From a virus: DNA of 64,000 nt. This document shows, piece by piece, positions 2,191-30,438 of this stretch. The DNA lies in IMG/VR virus record IMGVR_UViG_3300039191_000589, positions 32,001-96,000 of that record; one strand, given 5' to 3'. Every line of letters starts with the position of its first letter. Within the stretch, counting starts at the first letter, position 1. The notes beneath the pieces were generated by a model that saw nothing but the letters and a program-made list of their open reading frames with translations, searched no databases and was not told where the DNA came from. The translations under genes were made by a program, and so were the position numbers.

Positions 2191-2886
2191 ATGGCTGAAG
2201 GTAAGGTACATAAACATTTAAAACAAGTTGCGTTAAGATGGCTTAAATTTAAAGTAACTGATCTTGTAGGAGCCGAAGTAAAATTCCATAATGCTTATTC
2301 AGTGGCTGATGCGGCAGGAGTAAATTTAAAAAGAAAAGAAGTTAGAATAATTGAGGTTAAATCATCAAAAGCAGATTTAAAAAGAGATGATAAATTATTT
2401 AAAAAACCAACTTCCTATTACTATCATGCTCATTATTCATATATCATGTGTCCTGAAGGGGTATTGGATAAAAATGATATACCTAAATATTTTGGTTTAT
2501 TATATGTTGATGATTATGATAATGTTGAAGTTATTAAAAATCCAACAAAAAATAAAGGTAGATTAAAAACATATTTTAAAACAACTTTAAGAAGAACTGC
2601 AAGAGCTTTAACTAATGATAAAATATTTAGTAAAGAAAACATTGAATCATATGATAGAACAAATGGCCACTATAAACGAAAGGCTAAATTATGGTTAATT
2701 AGAACTCGTTGTCCTGATTGTAAGAAACATCCAAAAATATTAATTCATGAAGATAATACTAATATTGTAGAATGTCCTAAATGTGGTACTGAAATAGACT
2801 TAGATAAAGCTAAAGTTAATAAAGTGAGTGGTTATAATAAAAAATTTATTAAACAAGCTAATAATCTAATAGATGGTGATAATTAA
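2191..2886 (+). CDS. MmcB-like PD-(D/E)xK nuclease with C-terminal zinc ribbon
   Basis: HKHLK..ALRWL, AEV, ADAAG, IIEVKSSKADLKRD, YIMCPEG..IP.YFGLL; CPDC/CPKC pairs. Confidence 0.7.
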   Translation: MAEGKVHKHLKQVALRWLKFKVTDLVGAEVKFHNAYSVADAAGVNLKRKEVRIIEVKSSKADLKRDDKLFKKPTSYYYHAHYSYIMCPEGVLDKNDIPKYFGLLYVDDYDNVEVIKNPTKNKGRLKTYFKTTLRRTARALTNDKIFSKENIESYDRTNGHYKRKAKLWLIRTRCPDCKKHPKILIHEDNTNIVECPKCGTEIDLDKAKVNKVSGYNKKFIKQANNLIDGDN

Positions 2887-3311
2887 TGAAAAGATTAATA
2901 AAAAAAGCATCAAATGTATGGGTTGGAGAACCTGAAGTAAGGTTAGATGAAGGTCCATCAGGATGGGAAGCAGGAGCTTATGATGTTACATGTATGAAAC
3001 AAGGGGAAATAAAAATAGATGCTCTTAAGGGTATTCCTGGGGCTAATGGAGAGAATCGACAATGGCATAAACGTGATGGAAAAGAATATTTTGGTAATTA
3101 TTCAAAAGAAGAATGGGAAGAATTTAAAAATGATTTAGAACAAAATGGAATGAAATATCCTATTTTTATTACAGTTGATAAAGATGGCACTATTTTAATG
3201 AGTGAAGGAAATCATAGAATGGAAGCGGCTAAACAATTAGAATGGGATTCAGTTCCTGTTGAAATTAAATATTTTGGAAATTCCCAACAAGATGTTCATA
3301 AATTTGATTAA
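2886..3311 (+). CDS. ParB/Srx-like domain protein with MKRLIKKA leader
   Basis: LEQNGMKYPIFI...EGNHRMEAAKQL...VPV ParB-N motif; paralog of 9156..9602. Confidence 0.75.
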   Translation: MKRLIKKASNVWVGEPEVRLDEGPSGWEAGAYDVTCMKQGEIKIDALKGIPGANGENRQWHKRDGKEYFGNYSKEEWEEFKNDLEQNGMKYPIFITVDKDGTILMSEGNHRMEAAKQLEWDSVPVEIKYFGNSQQDVHKFD

Positions 3312-5722: not shown

Positions 5723-6565
5723 ATGATAGAAAAAGAATTGGGAAAAGAGATAAGTATTAAATATGAATATGAAAATATTGAATCAATATTAAATAATTTA
5801 AAACAAGAATTAAATAAAATAAATTATAATATTCAAGAAGTTAATAATAAAATAAAAAGAATAATTAATTCTGAAAAATATATAGCGGCATTATTTTATT
5901 TATTAATTGATTATAAATCTCTTTTTAATAAATTTAAGGATGATATAATTAAAGCATGTCATAATAACCCCCTTAGTGCAGTTCAAATTCTTAGCGAATA
6001 TCAAATTATAAATTTAGATGTACTAATTAATATTAATAAAGATGAATTACAATTATTACAATCTACAGATAATTATAAAAATATTATAAAAAAATATAGA
6101 ACAAAATTAATCCATATTATATCTCAAGATCCTGAATGTGCTTATAAATTTATTAGAGAATGTAAAGATAATGTTGAAAGACAATGTTTATTAAACTCAA
6201 TTTTAAAATCAGATACGTATTCTTTTAAGCTTAGAAAATTATTATTAATTAATTTAGATAGCCATAAAAAACAACAATTAACTACTATATGTTGTGGTAA
6301 TGATTATTATATTATGAAATTAATTGAAGCCCATAGGTATTCTTATATTAAATTAAATAATATTGAAAAATGGATTATTATTGATCGTATAATAGAATTG
6401 CAAGATAATAAATTAGCTGAAATAGCATATCATAAAGGTAATTTAGATTTATCACAGGAATTAAAAGAAAAATTAGAACCATTATTAATTATGAATAAAT
6501 TAAATAAAACTAAAAAAAATAAAGAAAAATTTATTAATTATAAAATAAAATTTATTAATTTTTAA
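5723..6565 (+). CDS. Hypothetical alpha-helical protein
   Basis: ORF with AGGAGG SD. Confidence 0.65.
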   Translation: MIEKELGKEISIKYEYENIESILNNLKQELNKINYNIQEVNNKIKRIINSEKYIAALFYLLIDYKSLFNKFKDDIIKACHNNPLSAVQILSEYQIINLDVLININKDELQLLQSTDNYKNIIKKYRTKLIHIISQDPECAYKFIRECKDNVERQCLLNSILKSDTYSFKLRKLLLINLDSHKKQQLTTICCGNDYYIMKLIEAHRYSYIKLNNIEKWIIIDRIIELQDNKLAEIAYHKGNLDLSQELKEKLEPLLIMNKLNKTKKNKEKFINYKIKFINF

Positions 6566-6573
6566 ATAAAAAA

Positions 6574-6597
6574 AAGGAAGAGAATCTTCTCTTCCTT
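6574..6597. terminator. Hairpin terminator between convergent genes
   Basis: AAGGAAGAGAA-TC-TTCTCTTCCTT; the A-run on its left gives a U-tail for the minus-strand gene. Confidence 0.8.
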
Positions 6598-7036
6598 AAT
6601 CTATTATTCTTAAATGTTGATTATTTTTTACCATTGTTTCATGAATATCTTCTAACCATTGCTCCCATTTATCATTTTCCTGCCATGCAGTAATAGAATT
6701 ATTTTCTAATCCTGATTTTATATCAATTATATTTTTTGGTTTAATTTTTTTTGGGTATAAAAAATCATATCCATTAATACATTTTATACATTTGCTTTGT
6801 TTTACTTTAACTGTTAAAATAGAAATTTTATTATTATGCAACCATCCTCCATATTCTATTGCTTTCTCAATGTTATTTGTTAAAAATATTACTCCATTGT
6901 GGTCTGGCCAACATTCTTTAGGTATATCATTATTATACCTAGAATTATAAGATGGAATCAATCCTTTCTTTAAAATTGAATTAATATTATAATCTGGGGT
7001 GCCATGATAAAGAATTTTAGTGTTATTGTTACTCAT
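6596..7036 (-). CDS. Putative ADP-ribosyltransferase-fold protein (Tpt1/KptA-like)
   Basis: LYHGT...SILKKGLIP...IFLT.NIEKAIEYG pattern; GGAGG SD on the minus strand; the only convincing minus-strand gene. Confidence 0.65.
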   Translation of the reverse strand: MSNNNTKILYHGTPDYNINSILKKGLIPSYNSRYNNDIPKECWPDHNGVIFLTNNIEKAIEYGGWLHNNKISILTVKVKQSKCIKCINGYDFLYPKKIKPKNIIDIKSGLENNSITAWQENDKWEQWLEDIHETMVKNNQHLRIID

Positions 7037-8325: not shown

Positions 8326-8928
8326 ATGAAAAGGTTAATAAAAAAGTCAAAACATGGTATTGAAAATAGAGATGAAGCATTAACTTACATAGATGGAGAA
8401 ATATATACTGGCCCTAACCATCCTAGGATGATTGATGAATTTTTAAAAGAAAACAAAAAACAAGGGAGAAAAATAATAGAAGATTTTATAGGCAATTTCG
8501 GTCTTGATGATGAAGAAGCTCAAATACTATTAGATAAATTTGAAGATTTAGGAAGAGTTCCATCAAATGTATTATCAGCTTATAATGAATTTGAAAGATC
8601 ATCTGATTATTATCAAGAATTAGGTGATGTTCCATTAGGATTTGGACATATTGTAGAAGATGATAATGCGATATATATTGAAAAAGATTCAATTCAAAAT
8701 GTTGATTTTAATACTATAATTAATGAAATAAAAAATAATTATCCTGATTATAATGTTTATGATGATAGTAGTTATTCTAATTATGGTGGTACTCCTGAAG
8801 ATTATACTAAAGTTGCCAGCAAACAATTAATAAAACAAGCTGCTTATGTATATTGTCGTAATTGTAATTGGAGCCAAGATGATTTTTGGAGTGAATCATA
8901 TAATCCATTGAGGTATTTATTAAATTGA
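8326..8928 (+). CDS. MKRLIKKS-leader protein, 'RDxAxTYxDGE' paralog family; probably continues through TGA into 8935..9144
   Basis: Paralogous to 11629 and 33221; internal second leader KQLIKQA precedes a CRNC motif. Confidence 0.75.
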   Translation: MKRLIKKSKHGIENRDEALTYIDGEIYTGPNHPRMIDEFLKENKKQGRKIIEDFIGNFGLDDEEAQILLDKFEDLGRVPSNVLSAYNEFERSSDYYQELGDVPLGFGHIVEDDNAIYIEKDSIQNVDFNTIINEIKNNYPDYNVYDDSSYSNYGGTPEDYTKVASKQLIKQAAYVYCRNCNWSQDDFWSESYNPLRYLLN

Positions 8929-8934
8929 GAAGAT

Positions 8935-9144
8935 ATGTTATTAAATGAAGATTTAGAAGAGCAATTTACAGATGATTGTAATTTTATTGATCAATATGGA
9001 AATTTAAGTAAAAAAGAAGTAATTATAAAAGAATTAAATGATGCTATTAATAAAATTAAAAAAATGGAATATAAAAATGAAAAACAATTAAAAAAGAATG
9101 ATAATAGATGCCCACAATGTGGAGAAAAATTAACTAGAGATTAA
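8935..9144 (+). CDS. In-frame continuation of the upstream ORF (second half of a CxxC...CxxC domain)
   Basis: Same frame as 8326, separated only by TGA GAA GAT; carries CPQC. Confidence 0.5.
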   Translation: MLLNEDLEEQFTDDCNFIDQYGNLSKKEVIIKELNDAINKIKKMEYKNEKQLKKNDNRCPQCGEKLTRD

Positions 9145-9155
9145 AGGGGGATTAT

Positions 9156-9602
9156 ATGAAAAGATTAATAAAGAAAAGTGAAAATTCTCAATATACTGGA
9201 GCTAAATTAATAACAGTTGAAGATGATTATTTGGATGAAGTACCTGAAGATAAAGTTAAAGATACTCATGTTACTAGAGTATTAGAAGGGGTAATTGATG
9301 TTTTTGATATAATGGATTTTCCAGGTGCTAATGGTGAGGATAGAGATTGGCATTTTAATGGTGATCAAGCATATTTTGGTACCTATACAGAAGAAGAATG
9401 GTATGATTTTTTAGATGATATAGAACAAAATGGTATTAAAAAGAAGGTTTTTCTTAAGGTATTTCCTAATGGTGATATAAAAGTTATAGAAGGAAATCAT
9501 AGAATAAAAGCAGCATTACATCTTAATATTAGAAAAGTACCAATAATGATTAAATATTTTGGCAATTCACAAAAATTTGTAGATTATTTTGATAAACCAT
9601 AA
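9156..9602 (+). CDS. ParB/Srx-like domain protein with MKRLIKKS leader
   Basis: PGANGEDRDWH, IEQNGI, EGNHRIKAA, KYFGNSQ shared with 2886..3311. Confidence 0.75.
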   Translation: MKRLIKKSENSQYTGAKLITVEDDYLDEVPEDKVKDTHVTRVLEGVIDVFDIMDFPGANGEDRDWHFNGDQAYFGTYTEEEWYDFLDDIEQNGIKKKVFLKVFPNGDIKVIEGNHRIKAALHLNIRKVPIMIKYFGNSQKFVDYFDKP

Positions 9603-9616
9603 AAAGAGGTTTAAAA

Positions 9617-9862
9617 ATGAAAATTAAAAAAGTAATAAAAGAATTTAAAAAGTTTGATAAAGATAATGTTTTAATTAAAACTTTTACTCAAGGGTTTTGT
9701 TATGATTTTGCTTGTATTCTTAAAATGAATTTCCCTAAAGGTGAAATATATTTTATAAAGAATAGAAGGCATTATGTTTTTAAAATAAATAATAAATTTT
9801 ATGATATAACTGGTGAAGTTAATATAAAAAAAGAAGATATTTTAGAAAAAGATACTATTTAA
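9617..9862 (+). CDS. Small protein with possible Cys-His-Asp (papain/transglutaminase-like) triad
   Basis: QGFCYDFA...HYVF...FYDITG spacing. Confidence 0.45.
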   Translation: MKIKKVIKEFKKFDKDNVLIKTFTQGFCYDFACILKMNFPKGEIYFIKNRRHYVFKINNKFYDITGEVNIKKEDILEKDTI

Positions 9863-9885
9863 GCACCTATAAGGGTGCTTTTTTT
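9861..9885 (+). terminator. Intrinsic terminator
   Basis: AAGCACC-TATAAG-GGTGCTT plus T-run. Confidence 0.8.
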
Positions 9886-9958
9886 ATTGTGTATTATAAT
9901 TTTTTAGTTGAAGTTTATATTTTTTATGAAAATAAATATAATATAGGTAGGTGGTATA

Positions 9959-11611
9959 GTGTTTAATTTAGATTCTATAAAAAATGAAACTAAAGCACTA
10001 CAACAAGACATAGAAAAAATCCAAGAAAATAAAATTCAAGGAATGCCTCTTGGTGATTATATTTTTAATAAAGTTATTACAAGGGTTGATCCAGTTGAAT
10101 ATTGCGAAAGAGTTTTAAGAAATCATTTACCTAGGGAGCAAACAAAATTACATGAAAATCAAAGGATTTTAGTAAGAGCTGTAACAGATCCTAAAATTCG
10201 TAAGGTTGCAGCCTTGATGTCACGGCAGGCTGGTAAAACAGAATCAATTGCTTCTTTTACAGGTTTTTTGTTAGATAATTATCCAGGAATGAGAGTGGGT
10301 ATATTTACTCCTAGAATTCAACAGGCACAAATTGATTTAGGTCGTACTAAAGTATTTTTTCAAATGAATGAAGGATTATTAAATAATGAAATAGTAAAAG
10401 TAACAAAAGATAAACTTAAATTATCAAATGGTTCATATGCTCAAGCAGTATCTGGTTCTGATCAATCTAATATTGAGGGTTTAACTTTTGATGTAATTAT
10501 ATTAGATGAGGCTCAAAAAATTACTGATTATACTTGGTCTGAACGTATTGCTCCTATGGGTGGTGCTACAAATGCGAAAATGATTAAAATTGGAACTCCT
10601 AAAACAAAAAATCATTTCTTTGAATCAATGAAAGGTTCAGCATCAGAAGCATGGGAGTGTTTATATCGGGATTGGACTGAATGTGAACAGTTATGGGTAT
10701 TAAATCAAACCGTTTTACCTGATCATACTGATCCTGAAAGTGGAAGAGTTCGACCATATTCTACATATGTTTTAGGGTTAATGCCTAAATCCTTAAAGCA
10801 AGAATATTTTCCAAAAAATCCTGAAATATGGACAGAAGGAGAAATGTCAGTTCAGGACTTTAGAACCCAGTATATGTTAAATTTTGTAGCTTCTGCAAGT
10901 AAATTCTTTAAAACACATGAAATTGATAAATTGAAAGATGGAGATTTTCATTGGTTAGAAAGTGGTAGAAGAAATGAAACATATGTAGCTGGTATTGACT
11001 TTGCTGGTTCAAGTGCTGGAAATGCTGACTATACTCATATTTCTGTAATGCGAGTTAATGATGATGGAACAAAAGAAAAAGTGTGGGGTACAGAATTTAG
11101 AGGTAAGCGTTATCCTGAACAAATTAAAGAGATTGCTAGTATTTTTGGTGGTCCTCGTCCAAAATTTATGGTTAAAAGTATTTTTGCAGACTATACTGGT
11201 TGTGGTCGACCTGTTATCCAAACATTACAAGATGAATATGGACTACAACAATTAGAAGGTATAACTTTTAATGCTAAAGATACCTATACAAATTCTGGTA
11301 TGAATATGAAAAATATTATGTATGCTAAATTTAAACATGAATTAAATTATGATCGTGTAAAATATCCTAATCAAGAGAAATTTTTAGAAACAGCAGGTTC
11401 TGATAAAAAAGGATTTTATCATAAAATGATTGGAGAGTGGAGTGATCTTGAGATGGAGATGGGAAGAAGTATTAATAAAAGAATTGAAGCACCATCTGGA
11501 GGTCATGATGATGTATGTGATGCTGATGCTTTAGCTAATTTTGCTGCATTAAATGGTCAACAAAATCGTGGAATGCCAAAACCTAGTCAAGCTAAAATTA
11601 GTCGTTTTTAA
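9959..11611 (+). CDS. terL: Terminase large subunit
   Basis: SRQAGKT Walker A, IILDEAQ Walker B, IGTP motif III, AGIDFAG nuclease start, HDDVCDA C-terminal acidic motif. Confidence 0.93.
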   Translation: MFNLDSIKNETKALQQDIEKIQENKIQGMPLGDYIFNKVITRVDPVEYCERVLRNHLPREQTKLHENQRILVRAVTDPKIRKVAALMSRQAGKTESIASFTGFLLDNYPGMRVGIFTPRIQQAQIDLGRTKVFFQMNEGLLNNEIVKVTKDKLKLSNGSYAQAVSGSDQSNIEGLTFDVIILDEAQKITDYTWSERIAPMGGATNAKMIKIGTPKTKNHFFESMKGSASEAWECLYRDWTECEQLWVLNQTVLPDHTDPESGRVRPYSTYVLGLMPKSLKQEYFPKNPEIWTEGEMSVQDFRTQYMLNFVASASKFFKTHEIDKLKDGDFHWLESGRRNETYVAGIDFAGSSAGNADYTHISVMRVNDDGTKEKVWGTEFRGKRYPEQIKEIASIFGGPRPKFMVKSIFADYTGCGRPVIQTLQDEYGLQQLEGITFNAKDTYTNSGMNMKNIMYAKFKHELNYDRVKYPNQEKFLETAGSDKKGFYHKMIGEWSDLEMEMGRSINKRIEAPSGGHDDVCDADALANFAALNGQQNRGMPKPSQAKISRF

Positions 11612-11628
11612 ATAAAGGGAGGATAAAA

Positions 11629-12483
11629 ATGAAAAGATTATTACAAAAATCTAGTGTAGAAAAAGTTACCCCTATTGAAAAATCATATAAATCTAAAAAT
11701 CAATTAGATGATTTTATAAGAGATGATAATAAAGATAACAGTGATAATAATGATAATATTGATGATGATTTTAAAGATATTCTTAAACAAAAAGAAAGAA
11801 AATTAAGAAATAATAGTCGATTAACTAAAAAATCATATCATGGTATAGATTCTCGAGATTCAGCATTAACATATTTAGATGGGGAGTTATATGTTACTAT
11901 GACCCATCCAGTTGCAATTGAAAAGTTTTTAGGTTCAAATAGAGAAAAAGGAAAGGAAATTATAGAGAAATATTTAGAAGAAAATAATATAGGTAAAGAT
12001 AGTGAAGAAGGTCAAGATATATTAAATGAATTTGAACAAGTAGGGATATTATCTACTGATATTTTCAATGCATATTCTGAATATTCAAGAAGGAAAGGGT
12101 ATTATCAAGATTTTGGTGATATTCCTTTGGCTTTTGCCCATATTGTAAATGATGGTCTTGCAATATATATTGAAGAAGATTCATTACAAAATGTTGAATT
12201 AAATACAGTTGTAAATAAAATAAAGGGAGAATTTCCTAATTTTGATATTTATAATGATGATAGTTATCCTGAAGAAGATGGTATGCCAGAAGATTATGAT
12301 AAATTAGCAAACCAACTTGATCCTGAAAGAATAAAAAAATATAAAAATATACAAAAAAGACCACGCCCTAATTGGAAATCATTAATATTAAAGACTAAAC
12401 CCCAATATTTAGTTGATAATTATTATAAAAAAAATAAAAGATTAATTAAAGATAGGGATGATAATAATGAAAAGATTAATTAA
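11629..12483 (+). CDS. MKRLLQKS-leader protein with internal SRLTKKS leader and 'RDSALTYLDGE' domain
   Basis: Central ~160 aa align by eye with 8326..8928. Confidence 0.75.
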   Translation: MKRLLQKSSVEKVTPIEKSYKSKNQLDDFIRDDNKDNSDNNDNIDDDFKDILKQKERKLRNNSRLTKKSYHGIDSRDSALTYLDGELYVTMTHPVAIEKFLGSNREKGKEIIEKYLEENNIGKDSEEGQDILNEFEQVGILSTDIFNAYSEYSRRKGYYQDFGDIPLAFAHIVNDGLAIYIEEDSLQNVELNTVVNKIKGEFPNFDIYNDDSYPEEDGMPEDYDKLANQLDPERIKKYKNIQKRPRPNWKSLILKTKPQYLVDNYYKKNKRLIKDRDDNNEKIN

Positions 12484-12643
12484 AAAATCTTATAATTATT
12501 ATACAACTCGCGATATATTTTTATCAAAAAATAAAGTTGATTTTAATTACTTTGATGAAATAAAAAGGTTGATAAAAAAAAGAAAAAATAAAAAAGATAA
12601 AAAGGATGAATCAAATGAAAAAAAACATAAAACAAGAGTTTAA
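12467..12643 (+). CDS. Small basic protein with MKRLIKKS leader
   Basis: ATG at 12467 after AGGGA; contains a second KRLIKK. Confidence 0.55.
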   Translation: MKRLIKKSYNYYTTRDIFLSKNKVDFNYFDEIKRLIKKRKNKKDKKDESNEKKHKTRV

Positions 12644-13457
12644 TTCACAAGTATTTGATTATGGAATTAAATTAATTAACCCTTTTAATATATGGAAAAC
12701 AACTTATGGAGCAGGTATAAAAGTAGGATTATTAGATTCAGGTATTGATTATAAACATTCTAATTTAAATAAGAATTTTGTTAAAGGGGTTAACTTTACC
12801 TCTAATGATAAAGATGATTATATGGATTATAATGGTCATGGTACAATGTCAGCTGGGGTAATAAGTAGTTATAATGATATTGGATCTGTTGGTATTGCTC
12901 CTAATATTAATTTATATAATTTAAAAGTATTAGATAAGAATGCTAAAGGAAATATAGATAATATAAAAAAAGGTTTATTATGGTGTATAAGAAATAATAT
13001 TAAAATTATTGTAATGAATTTTGGTTTAAATAATAGTGATAATAGTCTTCATAGAATAATTAAAAAAGCTTATACAAAACAACTTATTATGGTTGCTCCT
13101 ACTGGAAATGAAGGTAAAGAATCAACTTGTAATTATCCAGCTCAATATAAAGAGGTAATATCAGTAACTGCAATAAATAAAAATTATGAAATACCTAGTT
13201 TTGCTACTATAGATAATGCTGAAATTTCTGCCCCCGGAACAAATATTACTACAACTTATCTTGATAATAAATTTATATCAGCTTCTGGGACATCATTGGC
13301 ATCATCTTATATTGCTGGAATAATTGCTTTATTACAAGGGGAAAACTTAGAAAACAATAAGAGATTTTTAAATCAAAATCAAATTAGAAAAAAATTGTTT
13401 AAACATTGTAGTAAAATAAAGAATTTTGATATTAAATATTTTAGTTTTGATAATTAA
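12606..13457 (+). CDS. Subtilisin-like S8 serine peptidase
   Basis: LLDSGID, NGHGT, SGTSLA catalytic triad; GN oxyanion region; no evident signal peptide. Confidence 0.92.
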   Translation: MNQMKKNIKQEFNSQVFDYGIKLINPFNIWKTTYGAGIKVGLLDSGIDYKHSNLNKNFVKGVNFTSNDKDDYMDYNGHGTMSAGVISSYNDIGSVGIAPNINLYNLKVLDKNAKGNIDNIKKGLLWCIRNNIKIIVMNFGLNNSDNSLHRIIKKAYTKQLIMVAPTGNEGKESTCNYPAQYKEVISVTAINKNYEIPSFATIDNAEISAPGTNITTTYLDNKFISASGTSLASSYIAGIIALLQGENLENNKRFLNQNQIRKKLFKHCSKIKNFDIKYFSFDN

Positions 13458-13497: not shown

Positions 13498-13527
13498 ATA
13501 TGTTAATAAATGGTGGTGAAGTATATA

Positions 13528-14760
13528 ATGGAAGTTTCAAAGATTAATAATGGATTAACAATAATAACAGATAAAGATAATTCTGCTAATACAGCAACAA
13601 TAGGATATGTTATAGCTTGTGGTTCTCATGATGAAGCTGAAGATGAAATGGGCATTGCTCATTTTACAGAACATATGCTTTTTAAGGGAACTACTAATAG
13701 AAATGCTCAAGAAATATCTAAAGATATTGAAGCAATTGGTGGTATTTTAAATGCTGAAACTTCTTATGAACATACAAAATATCATTGTACAGTTCCATCC
13801 TCAGAATGGGAAATAGCTTGTGATGTATTATCAGATATGATTTGGAATAATTTAATTCCAAAAGATGAATTTAATAGTGAAAAGCAAGTTATATTAGAAG
13901 AATTAAAAATGTATTATGATAAACCTCGTTCAAGGGCAATGCAATTATTATCTATTAATATGCATTTTAATTATAAAAATAGACAATATATTGGTGGAAC
14001 TATTGAAACAGTTAAAAAAATTAATAGAGAACAAATGATTAATTTTATAGATAAATTTTATGTTCCTAGTAATATGGTTGTTATTGCTACTGGTGATATA
14101 GAACATGATAAATTAGTTAACTTTTTTAAGAATTATTGTTTAGATATAGAAATTAAAGACGAATTAAATGATTATAAAAAGTCTGAATTTAATCCACCTA
14201 AATTAAATGGTGATCAATTAGTAGAAGAAAAAAATACTATGCAATCTCATTTATGTTGGGGGTTATTTGGGGCTCAACCTAATACTCAAGAATGTGTTAT
14301 AGGAGATGTTATTGTAACTTTATTAGGTGGTAATACATGTTCAAGGTTATATCAAATTATTCGTGAACAAAAAGGATTAGCTTATACTATTACAATGGAT
14401 AATGAAGAATTTAGTGATATTAGCATAATAAAAGGATATGTTGGTTTAAATAAAGAAAATATTAATGATGTAAAAAATATTATAAAAAAAGAAATGTTTA
14501 AATTAAAAGATGAGTTAGTAACTGATGAAGAATTAGAACGGGCTAAATCATATATTGAAGGAAATTTAAAAATAGGATTAGAAACTCCATCAGCTCAAAA
14601 TGGTTTTCTTACTCAAGCTATAATAATTAATTCAGATATTGATATAGATAATTACTTTAATAAAATTAAATCAGTAACTAAAGAAGATATTATGGATTTT
14701 GCAAGAAAATATTTTAATAAAGATAATATTACATTTTCTCAAGTAATATCTAAAGATTAG
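13528..14760 (+). CDS. M16 family zinc peptidase (pitrilysin/processing-peptidase type)
   Basis: GIAHFTEHMLFKGT (HxxEH), LNAETS, VILEE, LGG..SRLYQ.IREQKGLAY. Confidence 0.93.
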   Translation: MEVSKINNGLTIITDKDNSANTATIGYVIACGSHDEAEDEMGIAHFTEHMLFKGTTNRNAQEISKDIEAIGGILNAETSYEHTKYHCTVPSSEWEIACDVLSDMIWNNLIPKDEFNSEKQVILEELKMYYDKPRSRAMQLLSINMHFNYKNRQYIGGTIETVKKINREQMINFIDKFYVPSNMVVIATGDIEHDKLVNFFKNYCLDIEIKDELNDYKKSEFNPPKLNGDQLVEEKNTMQSHLCWGLFGAQPNTQECVIGDVIVTLLGGNTCSRLYQIIREQKGLAYTITMDNEEFSDISIIKGYVGLNKENINDVKNIIKKEMFKLKDELVTDEELERAKSYIEGNLKIGLETPSAQNGFLTQAIIINSDIDIDNYFNKIKSVTKEDIMDFARKYFNKDNITFSQVISKD

Positions 14761-16552: not shown

Positions 16553-17494
16553 ATGACTAGTAAGAATTCTGATGTTTTATATGATAATAGAAAGAATGTT
16601 AGTGAAGATCCAGCATATGATTATAGGAAAAATTTAAATTGGAGAATTGATGGTGGCCCTCATAATGATGAAATTGAGGATCCAGGAATTAATGAGTTTT
16701 ATAAAGGTTACCAAATTAACCCTTATGAATTTAGACGGTGGGCTAATAAAAATTTATCAAAAAAACAACTAGAAAAATTATCAGCCCAAGAAGTAATGCC
16801 AATGAAATTTACTACTGATTATTTAGCTGATAAAATTTTAACTTTATGGAATGGAGTCGATGGACCTTTACAATATTTCTTTGATGGGTTTACATTAAAA
16901 TATGATAATAAATTAAAACAAGATATAGCTAAAAAATTAGAACAAAAAGGGTATAAAATATATCCAACCTTAACTGATGATCAACCAAATGATATAAGAT
17001 CAAGAAATGGAGAACATCGCCAAGTATATAAAGAAGTAATGTCTTCTAACAATGTTGATAATATATTAAAATATGCCAAATGTGTTTCTCAACATTGTCA
17101 AGCGGTTAATTTATTAGAAGGAGAAATTAATGATTTAAAAGAAGCTGGAAATGAAATTGAAAAATCAGATGCAAGTGGATTAGCTGAATATTATAAAAAT
17201 ATATTTCCAGAAGATTATGCAGTTTCTTTAGTTAATATTATGTTAGATGATTCTTTAGATGGTGCTTCAATTAATGATGAAAGCTTAGATATTAGTTATC
17301 CCCATGATCAATATCAACACATGTCAGAAGAATCACAAAAACAAATTGAAGATTATATGTCTGGAAATGCTGACCCTTATTATAATAAAGATGGTGGCGG
17401 AGAGTTTGGGTATAATTTTGTTACAGATATGAGAAATGATACAACACGCCCTACTCAGTATGAAACTAAAGTTAGTAATAAAAAAAAAGGTTAA
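16553..17494 (+). CDS. Hypothetical protein, likely virion/head associated
   Basis: ORF with SD in the head cluster. Confidence 0.65.
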   Translation: MTSKNSDVLYDNRKNVSEDPAYDYRKNLNWRIDGGPHNDEIEDPGINEFYKGYQINPYEFRRWANKNLSKKQLEKLSAQEVMPMKFTTDYLADKILTLWNGVDGPLQYFFDGFTLKYDNKLKQDIAKKLEQKGYKIYPTLTDDQPNDIRSRNGEHRQVYKEVMSSNNVDNILKYAKCVSQHCQAVNLLEGEINDLKEAGNEIEKSDASGLAEYYKNIFPEDYAVSLVNIMLDDSLDGASINDESLDISYPHDQYQHMSEESQKQIEDYMSGNADPYYNKDGGGEFGYNFVTDMRNDTTRPTQYETKVSNKKKG

Positions 17495-17538
17495 TAAAAA
17501 AATCTAATGAAATTGAAAATATCCCTTTATATGAAGTA

Positions 17539-17898
17539 ATGAATGCTATTTCACAAGCTAGTAAAAATGTTTCAGGTTTATTAGGAGAAAAATTAGTTCA
17601 ACCTCCAGTATTGGTAGATACTATACGAGAACAAGAATTTAGTAATATACAAGAAGATAATTCTAGTTTTGAAAATGTAGTAGATACAATTAATGTAGTT
17701 CGGGTTCATGAAATTTGGGAGGTTTATTTAGGCGATATTGATGATAAAAAAGATATAGAAACTATTTTTATAGTCATTTCAGGAGACAATAAAATTAAGC
17801 AAAAATATGAAAAAGGAGATTGGAATAATATTGAATATCAAGGTTTTTATTCTACCCTTGAAGAAGCTAAAAATAATATTAAAGGTTATTTAGACTAA
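17539..17898 (+). CDS. Hypothetical protein
   Basis: ORF track; weak SD. Confidence 0.55.
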   Translation: MNAISQASKNVSGLLGEKLVQPPVLVDTIREQEFSNIQEDNSSFENVVDTINVVRVHEIWEVYLGDIDDKKDIETIFIVISGDNKIKQKYEKGDWNNIEYQGFYSTLEEAKNNIKGYLD

Positions 17899-17919: not shown

Positions 17920-20900
17920 ATGAGTGAAAAATTTTCTACAACTAGTTCATTGTTATTTAAAGAGAATAATAATAATAATGATAATTTACCTGATTGGATG
18001 AAAGATCTTGATATAGATTTACAAAAACAAGCTAATAAAAATAAAAATATACCAGATTTACCAACTAAAGAAGAAGGAGTTTTTGCTTCTGAAAAACAAA
18101 AAATTAATAGAGATAGCAAAAATGGAACTCCTCGACAAATGGAGGCATCATTAAGTAATGGTAGAATGGTAACAGGAGCTAAAATTAATTTAGCTACATT
18201 TTTATCAGGTAAATATTATAAAGTACAACCTGATATAAATGGTAATCAAATTCATTTAAAAACAAAAATTGAAGAAATTCCTGCTAAATTTAATTTTAAA
18301 TTTACTGCAAGTAGTGGAAAAATAAAAAAAGCACAAACTTTCTCTGTGTTTTTTAATAATGAAACCGCTGAGTATCCTTTTAGTAAAGCTGGTTTTGATG
18401 AATGTATTGATGATATTAATAATGAAGACATTAAAAGTGTTGAAGGTGAAGTTGGAGAAGGGGTTAATAAAACCTATCTTATTAGTAAAGAAGAAATTGT
18501 AAGACGATTTAATGGGGAATTAAGAAAAGCTACTGATAAAATTAATGAATTATTAGAAAATGATATGATTGTTGGGGTAGGAAGTAATACTTTTGCTTCT
18601 TTATATAATGTAGATCAATTATTTCCTAATGAACCTAAAGAAAAACCTCAACAAAAAGAAGGTTCTTTTGATTTTGCACCAAATAGAGAACATGTTGCAG
18701 CTAAACCTCATAAAACTGCTAATGTATTATCAATTGAAGCTAGTAAAATGTTATCTAATTTCTTTTCTGATTTTGCTATTAAAAATCATTTTCGAGAAGG
18801 AAAAGAATTATTTATTGAAGCTAGTGTTTTAAGTAATAATGGAGTAAAAAGAACATGTAATTTTTGTTTTGGTATTGATAATGAAAAAGTAAAATCATTA
18901 AAAGTAGCTGAATTAAATGGTGAAAGAATGACTGTGGAACAATTATTAAGTAAATTAAATATTAATAATAGTGTTTTAGATAAATACCTTACTAAAAATA
19001 ATAGTAATTCTAAAAGAATTTATCAAGGACGTGTATTAACAGCTCGAAGAATTAAAAATAAATTATTAGGAATTGTAAAAAAACAAAATATAAAAGATAT
19101 TATTCATAATTGGACAGATCGTGATTTAATTACTAAAATTAATAGCACAACATATACTACTCAACATAGTTTTGAAGAATTATTAGCTAATATTGAAGTT
19201 GATACATTATCAAATAAAGAACAACAAGAAATAAAGGCATATAAAAAGAAATTTGGTGAAGGTTTAGATATGAATAGAAATGATGTTGAAGATACTGGGG
19301 TAAGAGATTATGATCAAGTTAAACCTTCACGAGAATTAAGATTAGCTAATTTAAAGCAATTTTTATCAACTAAATTTAAAAACTTTAAAATTGAAAACTT
19401 TATTAATGATAATGGTATAAAAGAAGCTAAAATAATTATTAAACAAGGATATAAATTAGATACTTGTGAAGCTGATTTATATTTTATTAATCCTGAAAAT
19501 GGAGTAAAAAATAAAGTAAAAGCAAAAGCATATTTTTATAAAAATCATATTGATAATGTTTTAGTTCAATTAGGTAATAAACAAGTTTCTATTGATAAAG
19601 CTAGAACATTATTTAAACAAAGTGAATTATTATCTAACTATTTAGAAGATAATTCTATTAATAAAACAGCTGGATCAATTATTATTACTGAAAATAAAAT
19701 TAAAGATAAACTATCTAATTATGTTAATAATGAAGAAATTGATAATATTATTAATGAATGGTATAATGAAGGTTATATTAAAGAAATTAATTCTGGAATA
19801 TATGCTTCAAATTATTCTTTTGAAAACTTATTAAATAAAACTGAAGCTCAATTATTATCAAATAAAGATAGAACAGAAATAAAATTAGCTAAACAATATT
19901 TTGGGGAACAAATTAAAATTGGTCGTAAAGAAATTGATGATACTGGCGTAAGAGAAGCTAATGAAAAATTATCAAATGTTAATGTATTAAATAAGGTTAA
20001 TAAGTTTTTATCAAAACATTTTGATAATTTTAAACCTCAAGATTTTGAAGTTAATGGAGAAAATGTAACTTACACAATTAATTTATTTGATGAAGAAACT
20101 GGATTATCAACTAATATTGATTTTGATTTTATTATTAATGATAATGAAATAACTAATTGTTTAGCCAATTTAAATGGTGAACAAATTAAAATTAATAATA
20201 TTAAAAGAGCATTTTCAACAAATGAAATTTTAAATAAATATTTAAATCAAAACAATAATAAAAAGACAAACGCACCAATGATTATTACAACTAAACAATT
20301 ACAGGGTAAATTAAATAAAATTGCTAATATACCATTGCAAGAAATTAAACAAATGGTTAATAAATGGCATAAAACAGGAAAAATTAAAAAAATGGGATCC
20401 AATGTTTTTGCAAGTAATTATACCTTAGAGCAATTATTATCAATGTCTAATATTAGACCATTATCTGATAAAGAAATTGCTCAGAGGATTAATAAGAGTA
20501 AAAGAGATCGCGGTTTAGAAGTTAATGCTCAGCATATTAATGATCAAGATACAAGACAACCTATTGAACAATGGTCATCTCAAAGAATGGTAACTCATGC
20601 TAAATCTGAATTAAATAAAATCTTTGAAGATTATAACATATTAGATGCAAAAGTTAATAATGATTCTTATGTTATTACTGCTCGTGTTGTTAATCCTAAT
20701 AATGGAATAAATCAAAAATTATATTGTAAATTAAAAGTTTTAGGTGATAAATTAGGAAAATTAATAGCAATTAGTGATGGTAAAAATACTGTTAGTCCAG
20801 ATCAATTAAGTAAATTAGATGTTTCTAATGAAGCTTTAAGAGAATTTAATAACATTAATAAAGCTACTAAGCGAAACTATAAAAATGTTATTTCTAAAAG

Positions 20901-24476: not shown

Positions 24477-27400
24477 TTGAGTAGAATAATTACTAACAAT
24501 AACAGTAATAACAATAGTAATAATTCTCAACAAGGAACAATTAATCGAAGATATGCAAATCATGGAAACAATGGTAGTATGATGAAATCAGCTATAACTG
24601 ATAAAAATTCACTACCAAATAATGTACAAAATCAAATAAATAAGAAAAAAGGCCCTAGAGCTAGAACAGCTAACGTTAACCGAAATAATACTAATCAAAA
24701 TAATAATGGTGGTATGCAAAAACAAGGTGCAGTACCACGTGGTGGATACAACGGGTATGGTGGTGGTATGGCTAGTGGATCAAGTGCTAACATAAAACAA
24801 TCTAGTCCAGAGTTTTATCATCCATTATTTCAAAATTTAAATATGATGTTACCACGTGATAGAAGGGAAAGAAATGAGTGGTGTAGACACTTTTACCGGG
24901 TTGAACCAATTATTGCTACAGCTTTAGATTTACATACTGAATTTCCTATTTCTGATTTTGATAATGTTGCTTCTGATCCATATATTAAAAAATTCTTTGA
25001 TCATATGGCTTTTGATAAATTAAATATGGTTAATTTACTTCTTGATATAGGATTAGAATATTGGAAAATAGGTGATGTATTTCCATTTGGGCAAATAAAT
25101 GAATCAGAAGGTATGTGGGAAAAGTTTGTATTATTAAATCCTGATTATATAGATATTCAATCATCAGTATTAGCGGAGGATCCAGTAATGGAATTAATTC
25201 CTGATGCTGAAATACAATCAATTGTTAATTCAGGTCCAAATGGAAAATATGGTGATATATATGATCAATTACCTGATGATGTAATTAGGCAAGTAAAAAT
25301 GGGGAAAAACATTAAATTGGATAGTAGATTAGTTTCACAAATTTCACATAAAGCTGCTCAGTATGAAACTTGGGGAACTCCAGTTATGATGCGTTGTTTT
25401 AAAACATTAATTTATAAAGATAAATTACGACAAGCACAAGATGCAATTGCTAATAGACATATTACTCCTTTAAGGGTAGCGAAGATTGGTCAACCAGGAG
25501 AACCAATGCCTTCGCAGGATGATTTAGATGCTTTTAGAGATACTTTAATGCAAGCTGATCAAGATCCTAATTTCTTTTTAGTATATCATTATGGATTACA
25601 ATTTGAATATGTTGGTTCTAATGGTAAAATTCTTCCACTAAACCAAGAATTTGATTTTATTCAAAAAGAACTAATGAATGGATTAGGAATAAATCAAGCA
25701 ATGTTAAATGGTGAAGGTCCTACGTATTCAAATGCACAAGTTGGATATGATACTTTAGCACGTCGTTATATGGCTTATAGGTTGCGTTTAGAATCATGGA
25801 TTAAAAATAAGGTATATAAACCAATAGCTGAAATTCAAGGTTTTTATGAATCAAAGAATGGCGAAATAAGTGCTAGTAATATGACTCCTAAGCAAAGAAA
25901 AATTTCAGCTCAACGAGGTGATATGGAATTAGTTATTCCAGATATTACATGGCGTGAACAAGATTTAACTACTAATCAAAGTGCAATGAATTTTATCCAA
26001 CAATTACAACAAAAAGGTTTAATTTCTATGCAAACAGTATTACCAATGTTAAACCTTGATCCTGAAACTGAAAAGAAACAACTTGAAGAAGAAAGAGGAA
26101 CAGTATTTGATCCAGATGCACCTAAGACAGGTCCTTTACCAAATCAAGGTAGTGGTTCTGGAAATCCAAAACCAGGCGATAAAAAACCATCAACTCCAGA
26201 TAAATCTGATAGTGGTGGAGATTCCGGTGGAGATTCAGATACTACTAAAGAAACAAGTATACAAGATTTTTTCAGTAAAACAGGAAGAATAAAAACTTCG
26301 TCATATAATAAAAAAAATAATAAAGAAAAACAATCAGTAGAAGCAACAATAAATTGGCGAAATACTATGGAACAAATTGGATTAAATAGTCAATTTAAAA
26401 AATATTTAATTTCAATAAATCAAGAAGTAGAAGATTATTATAATGAATTATTAAATAATATTGAAGTTGATATGGAGGAAGATCTAGATGAATTTTCAGA
26501 AAATGTTACAGCAGTATTAGATTATTATACTGAACCAATTGTAAAAATAGGAAAAGAAAAAATAGCAAATACAATTAATGAGGATATTGTTGAAGAGGAA
26601 GAGTTTATTAATCACTATAAAAATAATGATTTAAATGATTTTGAAAAAACTTTAAAGGATGCTTTAAATAATTGTTTTGGTGAATTAAATAATAAAAAAT
26701 TATTTGAAGAAATTAGTGAAATTATTTTTGGTTTTTGTTTGAAATTATTTAGATATTCTCAATTATTAGAATGTCTTAATCATAATATTAAAACCGTTTC
26801 ACTATCCAGTAATTATAATAGTTGTCCTATTTGTAGAACTAAAAGTAAATTTAATCATAATGTAGGTGATTTGATTGATAATATTGATGAGTTTCATGAA
26901 TCATGTAAATTAGTAATTAAACCTAATATAAAAGAAAGTGTTGAAGAATTATCTATTAAAAATACTAATATTAAATTTATTAATATACCAAAATCAATCA
27001 AAAATGAAATTGAACCACTAATTAATAAGATAAAAATGTCAACACCAGAATTATTAAGTGATAAAACAATTAAATTTGTTAATAATATAAGTGATTTAGA
27101 TGAATTTAATACTTTATTAAATAATAATCATCCTAAAGATAGAGTTAATCAAATTATTAATGATGTTCAAGGGAGTGTTGTTTCATTTGAGTATAATAAT
27201 GAGATATTTATTTCAAATGAACATTTAGAAAATATTAAAAATATTATTCTTAAATCAATATTAAAGGATAAATTAATGTTAAATAATGATTTAGGTTTTT
27301 GGAGAAAAGAATATAATAATAAGAAAAAATCAAAATATATTGGTAATGGAGTATCAATCTATGCTAAACCTTTTATAAATTATTTAGCTGAAGAAGATTT

Positions 27401-27527
27401 TAAAACATATTTTATTGAAAGTGCTATATATTATATTTTAAATCCACAATTATTAAAATCTATTGATAAAAATAATTATAAACAGCTTAAGGAAAATGTA
27501 TTTAATAATATAGAGTTTAGGGTGTGA
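24477..27527 (+). CDS. Portal protein fused to a MuF-like head morphogenesis domain and a C-terminal zincin-like domain
   Basis: Core ~aa105-545 has portal-like features (FYRVEPIIATALDLHTEFP, LLNPDYI, WGTPVM, GINQAMLNGEG); G/P/S linker; CPIC...HESC; location upstream of protease and capsid genes. Confidence 0.75.
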   Translation: MSRIITNNNSNNNSNNSQQGTINRRYANHGNNGSMMKSAITDKNSLPNNVQNQINKKKGPRARTANVNRNNTNQNNNGGMQKQGAVPRGGYNGYGGGMASGSSANIKQSSPEFYHPLFQNLNMMLPRDRRERNEWCRHFYRVEPIIATALDLHTEFPISDFDNVASDPYIKKFFDHMAFDKLNMVNLLLDIGLEYWKIGDVFPFGQINESEGMWEKFVLLNPDYIDIQSSVLAEDPVMELIPDAEIQSIVNSGPNGKYGDIYDQLPDDVIRQVKMGKNIKLDSRLVSQISHKAAQYETWGTPVMMRCFKTLIYKDKLRQAQDAIANRHITPLRVAKIGQPGEPMPSQDDLDAFRDTLMQADQDPNFFLVYHYGLQFEYVGSNGKILPLNQEFDFIQKELMNGLGINQAMLNGEGPTYSNAQVGYDTLARRYMAYRLRLESWIKNKVYKPIAEIQGFYESKNGEISASNMTPKQRKISAQRGDMELVIPDITWREQDLTTNQSAMNFIQQLQQKGLISMQTVLPMLNLDPETEKKQLEEERGTVFDPDAPKTGPLPNQGSGSGNPKPGDKKPSTPDKSDSGGDSGGDSDTTKETSIQDFFSKTGRIKTSSYNKKNNKEKQSVEATINWRNTMEQIGLNSQFKKYLISINQEVEDYYNELLNNIEVDMEEDLDEFSENVTAVLDYYTEPIVKIGKEKIANTINEDIVEEEEFINHYKNNDLNDFEKTLKDALNNCFGELNNKKLFEEISEIIFGFCLKLFRYSQLLECLNHNIKTVSLSSNYNSCPICRTKSKFNHNVGDLIDNIDEFHESCKLVIKPNIKESVEELSIKNTNIKFINIPKSIKNEIEPLINKIKMSTPELLSDKTIKFVNNISDLDEFNTLLNNNHPKDRVNQIINDVQGSVVSFEYNNEIFISNEHLENIKNIILKSILKDKLMLNNDLGFWRKEYNNKKKSKYIGNGVSIYAKPFINYLAEEDFKTYFIESAIYYILNPQLLKSIDKNNYKQLKENVFNNIEFRV

Positions 27528-27890: not shown

Positions 27891-28232
27891 ATGAAAAGAC
27901 TAATAAAAAAAGAGGGTAATAATGTATCTCCAAAAATGCATGAAGAAGTTGAAAAACATATAGAAGATTCTAATAAAGGTAAAAATAGATCAAGAGAATT
28001 ATATTCTCAACAAGAATATATTACAGCCAAAAGAATTTTAGCGGAAATACCTGTTACTCCAACCAATGAAAGGATTTATGAATTAGTTGAAGATATAAAA
28101 AAAGGAGAGTTTAAAGATATTTCTACTGTTGCTCAAGCGAAAAAGAATTGGTCTGATTGGGTAAAAAGAACCACTACAATTTTAAAAGATCGTGGAGTAA
28201 TTGGAACACAAGTTAATAATAATATAGAATAA
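27891..28232 (+). CDS. Hypothetical protein with MKRLIKKE leader
   Basis: SD GAGGGGG; leader motif. Confidence 0.7.
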   Translation: MKRLIKKEGNNVSPKMHEEVEKHIEDSNKGKNRSRELYSQQEYITAKRILAEIPVTPTNERIYELVEDIKKGEFKDISTVAQAKKNWSDWVKRTTTILKDRGVIGTQVNNNIE

Positions 28233-28901: not shown

Positions 28902-29825
28902 ATGTTAATTAAAACTGATACACAATTTAAAATTAATGATTATTATACCAACAAAGATGAAATAACTTTTGTTACTAATAAAGAGCCTGATTTTAATTTA
29001 TTAAAACAATCAGATACATTGAAGGTTAATAAAAAAGTAAAAAAAATTATGAAAACAGCAAAAAAGGTTAAAATTGCTCCTAAAGAAAGTGATTTTATTT
29101 ATGTAAGAAATAGAGCTGTTTCAGCAGGGAATGTAATTGATAAAAAAAATGGTGAAACACAATTAATTCCAATTGATGAATTTTATAAGTTTTTTGAGAA
29201 ATATGCTAATAAAGTAAGAGGGGCAAATGATAATGGAGATTTCTTTTCCCATGAAGAGTTAAAAAGAACTTATAAAACGTTTATAGGTAAATCTGCTTTT
29301 GTTGATCATCAAAATGATAATGTAGAAGATGCTCGTGGTATTATTTTAGATGCAGTATATAATGAAAAAGGTAGGTTTGTTGAACTATTAAAAGCAGTAG
29401 ATAAAAAAGCATATCCTGAATTAGCAAGAGGAATCGAATTGGGATATATTACAGATACTTCAATGGGATGTCGTTGTGGTTATTCTATATGTTCAATTTG
29501 TCAAAATGAAGCTACAACTGAGGATGAATTTTGTGAACATGTTTTATATTATAAAGGTACTTCATATAATGGATTGCCGGTTTTTGAGGATAATAGAGAA
29601 ATTGAATTTTTTGAAGATTCATTTGTTACTCAAGGTGCTGATGAAGATGCTAAAATTATGGAGAAGGTTGCTAAAATACAAAAAAATACTACTATTAAAA
29701 AACATAATAAAAGTTCACATAATAATAAACTAATGCAAAAAATTGCTAATGAACAAAATAAAAGAACTCGAAAAGGTAGAGTTAATACAATGTCAAATAA
29801 ATTAAATAATTTACCTTGGACTTAA
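28902..29825 (+). CDS. Prohead (capsid maturation) protease, HK97/assemblin-like fold with Cys-rich insertion
   Basis: NDNGDFF, FVDH (His), TDTSMG (Ser), CSIC...CEH, FFEDSFVTQGAD; lies between portal and capsid genes. Confidence 0.8.
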   Translation: MLIKTDTQFKINDYYTNKDEITFVTNKEPDFNLLKQSDTLKVNKKVKKIMKTAKKVKIAPKESDFIYVRNRAVSAGNVIDKKNGETQLIPIDEFYKFFEKYANKVRGANDNGDFFSHEELKRTYKTFIGKSAFVDHQNDNVEDARGIILDAVYNEKGRFVELLKAVDKKAYPELARGIELGYITDTSMGCRCGYSICSICQNEATTEDEFCEHVLYYKGTSYNGLPVFEDNREIEFFEDSFVTQGADEDAKIMEKVAKIQKNTTIKKHNKSSHNNKLMQKIANEQNKRTRKGRVNTMSNKLNNLPWT

Positions 29826-29886: not shown

Positions 29887-30438
29887 ATGAAACGGTTAAT
29901 AAGAAAAGCATTAATGGATCCTGAAACATTTGAAAATGCGATTGAACAATTAGGTACCCAAGGGAGAGATATTTTAAAAGAAATTGAAGAATTTAAATAT
30001 AAATTAGATCAAGTTACTAGGATTACTCAAAATGATGAACAATTAACTAATAAATTAGAAAATAAAAAAAATGCTGTAGATAAAGCTGCTAATCAATTAT
30101 ATACAATTATATTTGATTTGGAAAATTTAGATATAACTCAATTATATCATCAATATGATGAAAATGTAAATGATCAAATGCCTCATAATCCATCTGATAC
30201 ACCAGAACAGCCTGGGGATATGAATACTAATGATGAAGAAAATGAACGCGAATATGACTCACCTGATGACACTGAGGATATTGAGACGCCTGATAATCCT
30301 AATAGTGATAATAATGAAGATGAAAATAATGAAGATAACGAAGATAATGAAAGTGGAGATAATGAAAATAATGATGATGGTGAAGAAGAAAATAATGAAG
30401 AAAATGAAAATAATGAAGAAAATGAAGAAAATAACTAA
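29887..30438 (+). CDS. MKRLIRKA-leader helical protein with long acidic N/E/D tail
   Basis: AGGAGG SD; between protease and scaffold-like gene. Confidence 0.7.
   Translation: MKRLIRKALMDPETFENAIEQLGTQGRDILKEIEEFKYKLDQVTRITQNDEQLTNKLENKKNAVDKAANQLYTIIFDLENLDITQLYHQYDENVNDQMPHNPSDTPEQPGDMNTNDEENEREYDSPDDTEDIETPDNPNSDNNEDENNEDNEDNESGDNENNDDGEEENNEENENNEENEENN

Follow-up and report, generated by a model that had tools for sequence, protein, structure and literature searches.

What does it mean that unrelated proteins encoded around the head genes of a phage begin with the same eight residues, and that the same short sequence recurs inside some of them, ahead of one domain after another? The question is raised by two genes, 8326 (with its continuation 8935) and 11629, in a stretch of viral DNA of 64,000 bp that we call the window, positions 32001-96000 of the 110-kb viral contig IMGVR_UViG_3300039191_000589. 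They open with MKRLIKKS and MKRLLQKS, two variants of a leader of the form (M)K-R-L-I-K-K-[S/A]. The leader is genuine and under selection at the level of the peptide. Its best explanation, to which we assign a probability of about 0.55, is that it acts as a targeting-plus-processing signal and that the genes encode cleavable cargo polyproteins. An initial annotation had proposed such processing, from sequence strings that are all present at the positions it gave.

A shared leader in the head-gene region

The pattern ATGAARMGNYTNHTNMRNAAR, a back-translation of M-K-R-L-x-x-K, has eight matches in the window (starting at 2886, 8326, 9156, 11629, 12467, 27891, 29887 and 33221), against 0.02 expected from 100 shuffles, and a six-frame scan of the 110-kb contig found strict copies nowhere else. 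The leader opens nine or more proteins that are otherwise unrelated and whose genes lie in the neighbourhood of those for the terminase, portal, prohead protease and capsid. The bodies that follow it are mutually unrelated: two ParB_N-like proteins, the family of the domain shared by 8326 and 11629 (here the unit), a gp17-like protein and an acidic-tailed protein encoded directly after the prohead protease. The best-conserved leader positions are the Leu, two basic residues and then a small residue (A/S). The Arg, Leu and Ser/Ala codons vary synonymously from copy to copy, so that selection acts on the amino-acid sequence; 5′ of the copies, only the ribosome-binding site is conserved in the DNA. 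The parts of the two genes and the other leader-bearing genes of the window are listed here, with AlphaFold2 confidence given as pLDDT (predicted local distance difference test).

8326-8349, + strand: N-terminal leader MKRLIKKS of gene 8326
8350-8817, + strand: candidate cargo unit 1, the 'RD-x-A-x-x-Y-I-D-G-E ... F-A/G-H' domain, ending DYTKVA (8800-8817)
8818-8841, + strand: degenerate internal leader S-KQLIKQA (KQLIKQA 8821-8841) at the joint between unit and zinc ribbon; canonical (KRLIKKS, NKRLLKTS or KLIKKS) in homologs
8842-9144, + strand: zinc-ribbon module (CRNC 8854-8865 ... CPQC) with an in-frame TGA at 8926-8928; in the mechanical annotation, the end of open reading frame (ORF) 8326 plus ORF 8935-9144
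9156-9602, + strand: leader-bearing ParB_N-like protein (MKRLIKKS...), with a paralog at 2886-3311 (Pfam ParB_N E 4.8e-05 and 1.7e-04; PHROG ParB-like nuclease families)
11629-11652, + strand: N-terminal leader MKRLLQKS of gene 11629
11653-11814, + strand: acidic, mostly disordered N-terminal extension with one helix (amino acids 46-61); pLDDT <50 for residues 11-35 and 70-79 for the helix
11815-11835, + strand: internal leader SRLTKKS, immediately before the unit
11836-12309, + strand: candidate cargo unit 2, paralog of 8350-8817, ending DYDKLA (12292-12309); pLDDT >90 for amino acids 80-230
12310-12483, + strand: basic, low-confidence tail of 11629; holds one more motif copy, KRLIKD (12436-12453)
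12467-12643, + strand: mini-ORF with MKRLIKKS, ~20 amino acids of unit start (SYNYYTTRD...) and a second leader KRLIKKR (12563-12583); KKS-x6-RD spacing as in 8326
27891-28232, + strand: leader-bearing gp17-like protein (MKRLIKKE...), ortholog of phage G gp17
29887-30438, + strand: scaffold-like, acidic-tailed protein that carries the leader (MKRLIRKA-LM...), encoded next after the prohead protease; its phage G ortholog is gp20
33221-33646, + strand: third, shorter paralog of the unit-bearing genes, with MKRLIKKS, a 33-amino-acid acidic linker and RDSAITYIDGE..., and no internal leader

The Lys-Lys pair of the leader is nearly always encoded as AAA AAA, so that homopolymer runs of A7-A9 mark gene starts and module joints (e.g. 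2886-2906, 12467-12487 and 33221-33241). Such runs are inherently slippery and may promote frameshifting and gene fusion or fission at these points.

The window is AT-rich (21-31% GC) and almost every gene lies on the + strand. TerL (9959-11611) is 61.5% identical over its full length to gp1 of Bacillus phage G, and the gene order is shared with that phage: TerL, an M16 peptidase, a sigma-like regulator, then gp4-like, gp5-like, gp6-like and gp7-like genes, on to the portal. Three further genes fix the setting.

24477-27527: portal
28902-29825, + strand: head maturation (prohead) protease, the candidate processing enzyme (phrog_18299 E 8e-18; 56% identity to phage G gp19)
32163-33101: HK97-type major capsid protein (MCP)

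From the TerL identity, the shared gene order and the positions of portal, protease and MCP, the tagged genes can be placed in the head-gene region of what is, judged by its genes, a phage-G-like megaphage. All strict leader copies fall in this region (TerL 9959, portal 24477, protease 28902, MCP 32163). Looser copies occur in ORF 48502 and in an ADP-ribosyltransferase (ART)-like ORF that precedes the window by 1.4 kb (contig 30575-31027) and reads (I)KRLIRES. The small ART-like proteins share ..YHGT..; another, ORF 6596-7036 on the - strand, has no leader, and Pfam support for its ART assignment is weak (PARP E 0.003). The motif strings had no match in a text search of the literature, whose coverage did not extend to phage G virion proteomics, and the motif is unmentioned in the phage G literature examined.

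Leader-headed modules, fused and stand-alone

ORFs 8326-8928 and 11629-12483 are paralogous: in BLASTP, amino acids 3 to ~182 of 8326 align with 64 to ~249 of 11629 at 46% identity (E 5e-59). The first aligned residues are precisely those of RLIKKS and RLTKKS, and the conserved body stops at DYTKVA and DYDKLA. The domain that stands at the N-terminus of 8326 therefore lies internally in 11629, behind SRLTKKS, while 11629 has an N-terminal leader of its own, just as had been described from the sequence strings. What the two proteins share is a roughly 150-amino-acid unit with a conserved His/Asp/Glu set, H-D..N-R-D-x-A-x-x-Y-I-D-G-E ... N-H ... F-A-H, and these invariant positions hint, as a conjecture, at a metal-dependent activity. 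The unit has no Pfam, PHROG or PADLOC match, and its best E-value in a profile search of the PDB is 0.5. As to fold, Foldseek gave no hit at E ≤1e-3 on PDB and BFVD, and the best scores of a wide VIA-align search (Z 4.1) and of the ESM Atlas (0.79) are not significant.

The leaders lie outside the folded parts. In the AlphaFold2 model of the read-through product 8326-9144, residues 1-8 and 10-13 stay below a pLDDT of 50, residues 14-165 reach about 90, and confidence is low from about residue 170. Residues 1-45 of 11629 are mostly disordered and are followed by the helix (46-61), SRLTK (63-67) at pLDDT <50 and then the unit above 90. The initial annotation had offered predicted structure as a way to refute its processing sites; in both models all of the proposed sites fall outside confidently folded domains.

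A word-based search yielded few relatives, one of which, P0002, consists of two tandem units with the joint DDYKKIA-KKRLKTS-KHGIENRD. A profile built from ten units retrieved, at E ≤1e-3, 207 cluster representatives, many with several units and some with up to about seven in one polypeptide; P0005-P0016 are multi-unit proteins, P0005 with 951 amino acids and P0007 to P0009 with about 1,050. L002, a 416-kb IMG/VR contig, has two array genes upstream of its terminase (ORFs 9083-10489 and 10486-11442), with the joint ...KYSF-KRLKKRIS-YHGIGNRD in a three-unit gene and ...VASYNH-LKRLGK-HGISNRD in a two-unit gene. Neither joint contains Met, so internal initiation cannot separate these units. With two to about seven units per polypeptide and leaders at the joints, the relatives strongly support the proposal that leader+domain units have been concatenated.

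N-terminal units (n=51) open almost uniformly with M-K-R-L-I-K-K-[S/A]-x-H-[D/G]. Internal units (n=89) have the joint consensus ...Y-x-K-[IVL]-A, 0-3 residues, [KR]-L-K-K-x-[A/S]-x-H-D-x-x-N-R-D. Scored with a strict regular expression, the density of the motif per residue is 0.040 in the 14 amino acids that precede a unit and 0.0033 elsewhere, a 12-fold difference. Some units do without it: in the short-unit subfamily that includes 33221 the linker is different and lacks the motif, so the fold does not need it. Some lineages have a variant, D-[LM]-R-K, that a protein uses at its N-terminus and again at its internal joints: proteins with a DL-type N-terminus have 46 internal motifs of DLR type versus 3 of RL type. 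This co-variation suggests one co-evolving reader for N-terminal and internal copies, for which it is supportive only. Many arrays (P0007, P0009, P0014, P0020, P0027 and P0028; L002 12266-13510) open with another domain of ~120-170 amino acids, ..KPNKFH.AL.DYL..ELK.NNI.C.K...IIDC.NG.IYLRG..RF.G.RESDA..CA, which has its own leader (M-x-x-RLKK-[ILV]-A or MxDLRK) and is not recognised in the window.

The modules joined by the leader need not be alike. In P0010, P0037, P0092 and P0138 a unit end ...Y.K[IV]A is followed by K(R)LIKKS and then by a zinc ribbon, xYVHCHNCGW...CPECG..ELDID. A gp17-like module stands behind two units in P0045 (joint KKIARRKS-MRRLIKKS), and in P0100 two units precede a scaffold-like gp20 module that is 58% identical to 29887, with the motif present three times at their joint. 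Units are followed by fused ART-like modules in P0131 (LKRLIKRA), P0017, P0101 and P0127, and P0099 consists of a ParB-like module, SNRLIQS and a unit. The gp17-like, gp20-like and ParB-like modules are at the same time separate leader-bearing genes of the window (27891, 29887 and 9156), and phage G likewise has such modules as single genes with the leader, which is the outcome that the initial annotation had looked for in a comparison of homologs: modules occur both stand-alone with a leader and fused. For the zinc ribbon, no stand-alone candidates appeared among the shorter proteins, in a word index that is weak for an 80-amino-acid query.

The same four zinc-ribbon homologs bear on the end of 8326, which had been read as KQLIKQA followed by a new Cys-containing domain. 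They bear out a leader at this joint; the domain, on the other hand, is not complete within 8326. It runs in the same frame through the TGA at 8926-8928 into ORF 8935-9144, which holds the second CxxC, and in the four homologs the module is one uninterrupted ORF. An alternative genetic code with TGA as a sense codon was considered and rejected: other TGA-terminated ORFs extend by 17 codons at most, so that only the TGA of 8326/8935 is special and in the rest of the contig TGA acts as a genuine stop. The TGA at 8926-8928 could be read through, could have arisen recently as a nonsense mutation or could be an error of sequencing.

Downstream of 11629, mini-ORF 12467 looks, by its sequence, like a decayed unit of a former array. 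Three leader copies fall within 150 bp (12436-12643), KRLIKD, MKRLIKKS and KRLIKKR (the last on an A8 run at about 12573-12581), directly 5′ of a gene for an S8 protease, and a longer array was perhaps disrupted upon acquisition of that gene.

Phage G carries the motif on orthologs of the tagged proteins. Its gp17, ortholog of 27891, reads (L)KRLIKKSNH; its gp20, ortholog of 29887 (MKRLIRKALM), reads MSKKISRLKKTALM (..SRLKKTA); gp13 reads MKRLISK, and gp9 and gp10 have motif variants. A loose DNA pattern has 13 matches in phage G versus 1 in the control, and 12 versus 3 in a second relative, G001. A tblastn search of deposited phages with 11629 gave no match, so phage G itself lacks the unit family.

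A further copy marks a likely shift site, which the window shares with phage G (L001 about 5830-5850) and L002 (about 20005-20020).

17477-17505, + strand: A9 slippery run (17477-17488) that ends the gp5-like ORF; the -1 frame reads KKRLIKKS... and has no start codon

A conserved peptide (..IENIPLYEVMNAISQASKNV / ..IEDIPVYLVLDALSKASHNV / ..IGNIPLAQALDALNYGVRNI) can be read from the startless -1 frame on into the gp6-like ORF, and the leader (KRLIKKS / RLKKK / KRLADS) is placed exactly at the shift site of the gp5-like gene (window 16553-17898), unannotated in the phage G record. The site looks like a conserved -1 programmed frameshift or a site of transcriptional slippage. Phage G has another A-run shift in its head-gene region: gp23 is annotated as a joined coding sequence (gp22/gp23, L008 7566-9235) in which the frame changes on ..GGTAAAAAAGTAG.., where gp22 ends.

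How the leader may be read

In the explanation that we favour, 8326(+8935) and 11629 would encode modular head cargo, each module headed by a portable, unstructured basic leader that would address the protein to the assembling prohead. A maturation protease would then recognise the leader, most likely, on precedent, the prohead protease 28902-29825. Its cut would fall at the small residue with which the leader ends, or right behind it, and possibly at a second kind of site, behind the terminal K-[IVL]-A of a unit. Multi-module precursors would in this way be released as single modules in the head and be delivered with the DNA. A dual role in address and cut would fit a tag that is confined to the head-gene region, sits on scaffold-like, ART-like and nuclease-like proteins, is unstructured and is kept at internal joints that have neither a free N-terminus nor a start codon. 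For processing at K-x-A/S speak the conservation of A/S, the best conserved after the basic core, the K-[IVL]-A at the end of units and the position of the sites outside confident folds. Release of units at such sites, as the initial annotation had it, is consistent with the sequences; K-x-[AS] is too short in a lysine-rich proteome to be diagnostic. Tentatively, and at somewhat less than even odds, one code of 7-8 residues, R-L-[IK]-K-K-[S/A] (variant D-[LM]-R-K-x-A), might both address proteins to the prohead and mark the protease cut sites, with effectors addable either as a tagged gene or as a link in a polyprotein.

Besides the prohead protease, two peptidases of the region are candidates.

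12606-13457, + strand: S8 subtilase of the intracellular-serine-protease type, second candidate enzyme (Pfam Peptidase_S8 E 4e-39)
13510-14760, + strand: M16 zinc peptidase, third candidate or peptide-clearing enzyme (Pfam M16, M16_C; intact HxxEH, HFTEH)

The S8 subtilase is about 40% identical to Bacillales intracellular serine proteases and has no counterpart at the corresponding place in the stretches of phage G and L002 examined. That it might itself be a leader-bearing protein, through a +1 shift from mini-ORF 12467, is unsupported, as its nearest relatives (P0153 and P0154) start at the protease body. The M16 peptidase adjoins TerL in the window, in phage G (gp2, L001 1980-3212) and in L002 (16333-17583). 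For both enzymes, released leader or scaffold peptides are one possible substrate. A genome search of G001 found no ortholog of the prohead protease.

Several observations weigh against a leader that targets and is cut. The MCP has no leader motif, so that if the prohead protease reads the leader, leader-type substrates are not its only kind. One looser leader, MKRLLKNC of ORF 48502-48990 (a protein with no Pfam match), falls outside the head-gene region. The strict regular expression fits about 43% of internal joints versus 59% of N-termini, and some joints are degenerate, such as KQLIKQA in 8326. Co-variation of the D-[LM]-R-K type rests on few, related lineages. In phage G the leader occurs although no homolog of the unit family is detectable, which makes the two separable. 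We infer both the virion location and the cutting of the tagged proteins, and a 2025 paper is silent on their processing.

The alternative that survives best takes the leader for an uncleaved short linear motif, a basic tether to a partner inside the head (scaffold, inner capsid face, portal or DNA), with arrays that work intact and repeats that raise avidity or set spacing. The leader is indeed strongly basic and predicted to be unstructured, and in some lineages the motif is repeated within single linkers (DLR repeats, P0016, P0054), as is typical of binding motifs. Encapsulins are a case of HK97-fold shells whose cargo is loaded by peptides that stay uncleaved, and the cleavage proposed here is itself deduced. 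What makes a tether unlikely, though still the strongest competitor, is that modules swap freely between separate and fused states, which is easier to tolerate if the joints are cut; P0100 even joins units to a scaffold-like protein that is expected to exit the head. Two further features resemble protease subsites, the small residue that invariably follows the basic core and the K-[IVL]-A that precedes it, and three proteases are encoded in the same region.

Less likely again is a signal read outside the capsid, either a ClpXP degron or recognition tag or an M16 presequence, that sets the timing or level of the proteins. M-basic-hydrophobic N-termini resemble one class of ClpX tag, and M16 enzymes such as the mitochondrial processing peptidase remove basic N-terminal presequences. 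An M16 peptidase beside TerL is conserved in the window, phage G and L002, with HFTEH syntenic in the three phages; the leader is basic, at only 8 amino acids. Phage G also encodes ClpP and ClpX, both detected in particle preparations (PMC12484599). Against such a signal, strict copies occur only in the head-gene region, some of them on scaffold-like and gp17-like head-module proteins, and an N-terminal degron need not persist at internal joints, where there is no free N-terminus.

The last alternative, that the motif is no independent signal but the N-terminal edge of the RD-YIDG domain or a nucleotide or translation feature (an A-rich start or a recombination scar), could appeal to the motif directly abutting the domain in 8326 and most single-unit homologs and to AAA-rich codons after ATG favouring initiation, but it is very improbable and largely refuted, as the motif heads unrelated folds (ParB_N-like, ART-like, zinc ribbon, gp17-like, gp20-like), some units fold without it, AlphaFold2 leaves it unstructured, its codons and upstream DNA vary, and internal copies have no start codon.

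Known systems and significance

The nearest precedent for a leader that addresses and is removed is the capsid targeting sequence (CTS) of phage T4, to which we liken the leader as a functional analogy, not as a case of membership. T4 CTSs are N-terminal propeptides of 10-19 residues that target unrelated internal proteins and the ADP-ribosyltransferase Alt to the prohead core and are removed by gp21 (PMC9026906). As with the T4 proteins IPI-III and Alt, a short N-terminal peptide is here common to proteins that are unrelated and whose genes accompany or neighbour the head genes, the candidate cargo includes ART-like proteins, as Alt is in T4, and a prohead protease is encoded nearby. In sequence, however, the leader and the T4 propeptides are unrelated: the gp21 cleavage logo has a Glu (LIE; PMC9026906), whereas the present leader is rich in K/R and has none. 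The phage at hand has an HK97-type capsid and belongs to the phage-G group, with its leader known from sequence alone, and for the T4 CTS no internal repetition at module joints is described. T4 already provides the principle of a short head-targeting propeptide that several proteins share; the motif, the lineage and above all the repetition at the joints of shuffled multi-module proteins appear new.

Propeptides on the ejection and inner-body proteins of phiKZ-like giant phages are long, and their cleavage motif ends in Glu after a small residue. The joints here differ, with basic residues followed by A/S and no conserved Glu. We know of no common eight-residue leader and no tandem leader+unit arrays in phiKZ-like phages. 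What is alike in these giants (SPN3US, with its protease gp245) is that many paralogous packaged cargo proteins are trimmed by the prohead protease (PMC10052503, PMC7411985).

With viral polyproteins the tagged genes share several modules per ORF, a conserved joint motif, nearby proteases and modules that are separate in relatives. Several independent modules stand in one ORF and also exist as separate genes, and the joint motif is conserved outside folded domains (joint consensus, 12-fold enrichment, pLDDT <50). Polyproteins are a hallmark of RNA viruses and retroviruses; in tailed phages, to our knowledge, only nested or fused protease-scaffold-capsid genes are common. The modules here differ in being accessory cargo, as we read them, rather than core replication or structural proteins, with a cleavage that is proposed.

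Two further systems share single traits. In Staphylococcus phage 80alpha the capsid and scaffold proteins have an N-terminal leader, a mimic of ribosomal protein L27, that is cut by the host protease Prp. Distinct head proteins of a Firmicutes phage thus share a short peptide for whose removal there is a dedicated protease; its motif, however, is hydrophobic and ends in FFA, unlike the basic RLIKKS, and it is confined to major structural proteins and has no internal repeats. Encapsulins likewise address varied cargo into an HK97-fold shell with a short portable peptide. Their peptides differ in being usually C-terminal and uncleaved, with another consensus and without the context of a DNA-packaging phage.

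Loading of accessory proteins into the heads of giant phages is known mainly from T4 and the phiKZ group, and plug-and-play packaging, if true, has not been described for tailed phages. It would explain the free fusion and splitting of these genes between phages. It would also make the packaged and ejected proteome of uncultivated megaphages identifiable from sequence alone; as predicted, that proteome would include ART-like proteins, ParB-like nuclease-like proteins and a large family without a known fold. The leader would in addition be a handle for packaging foreign proteins, like the T4 CTS, and phage G, which carries it on gp13, gp17, gp20 and others, is cultivated.

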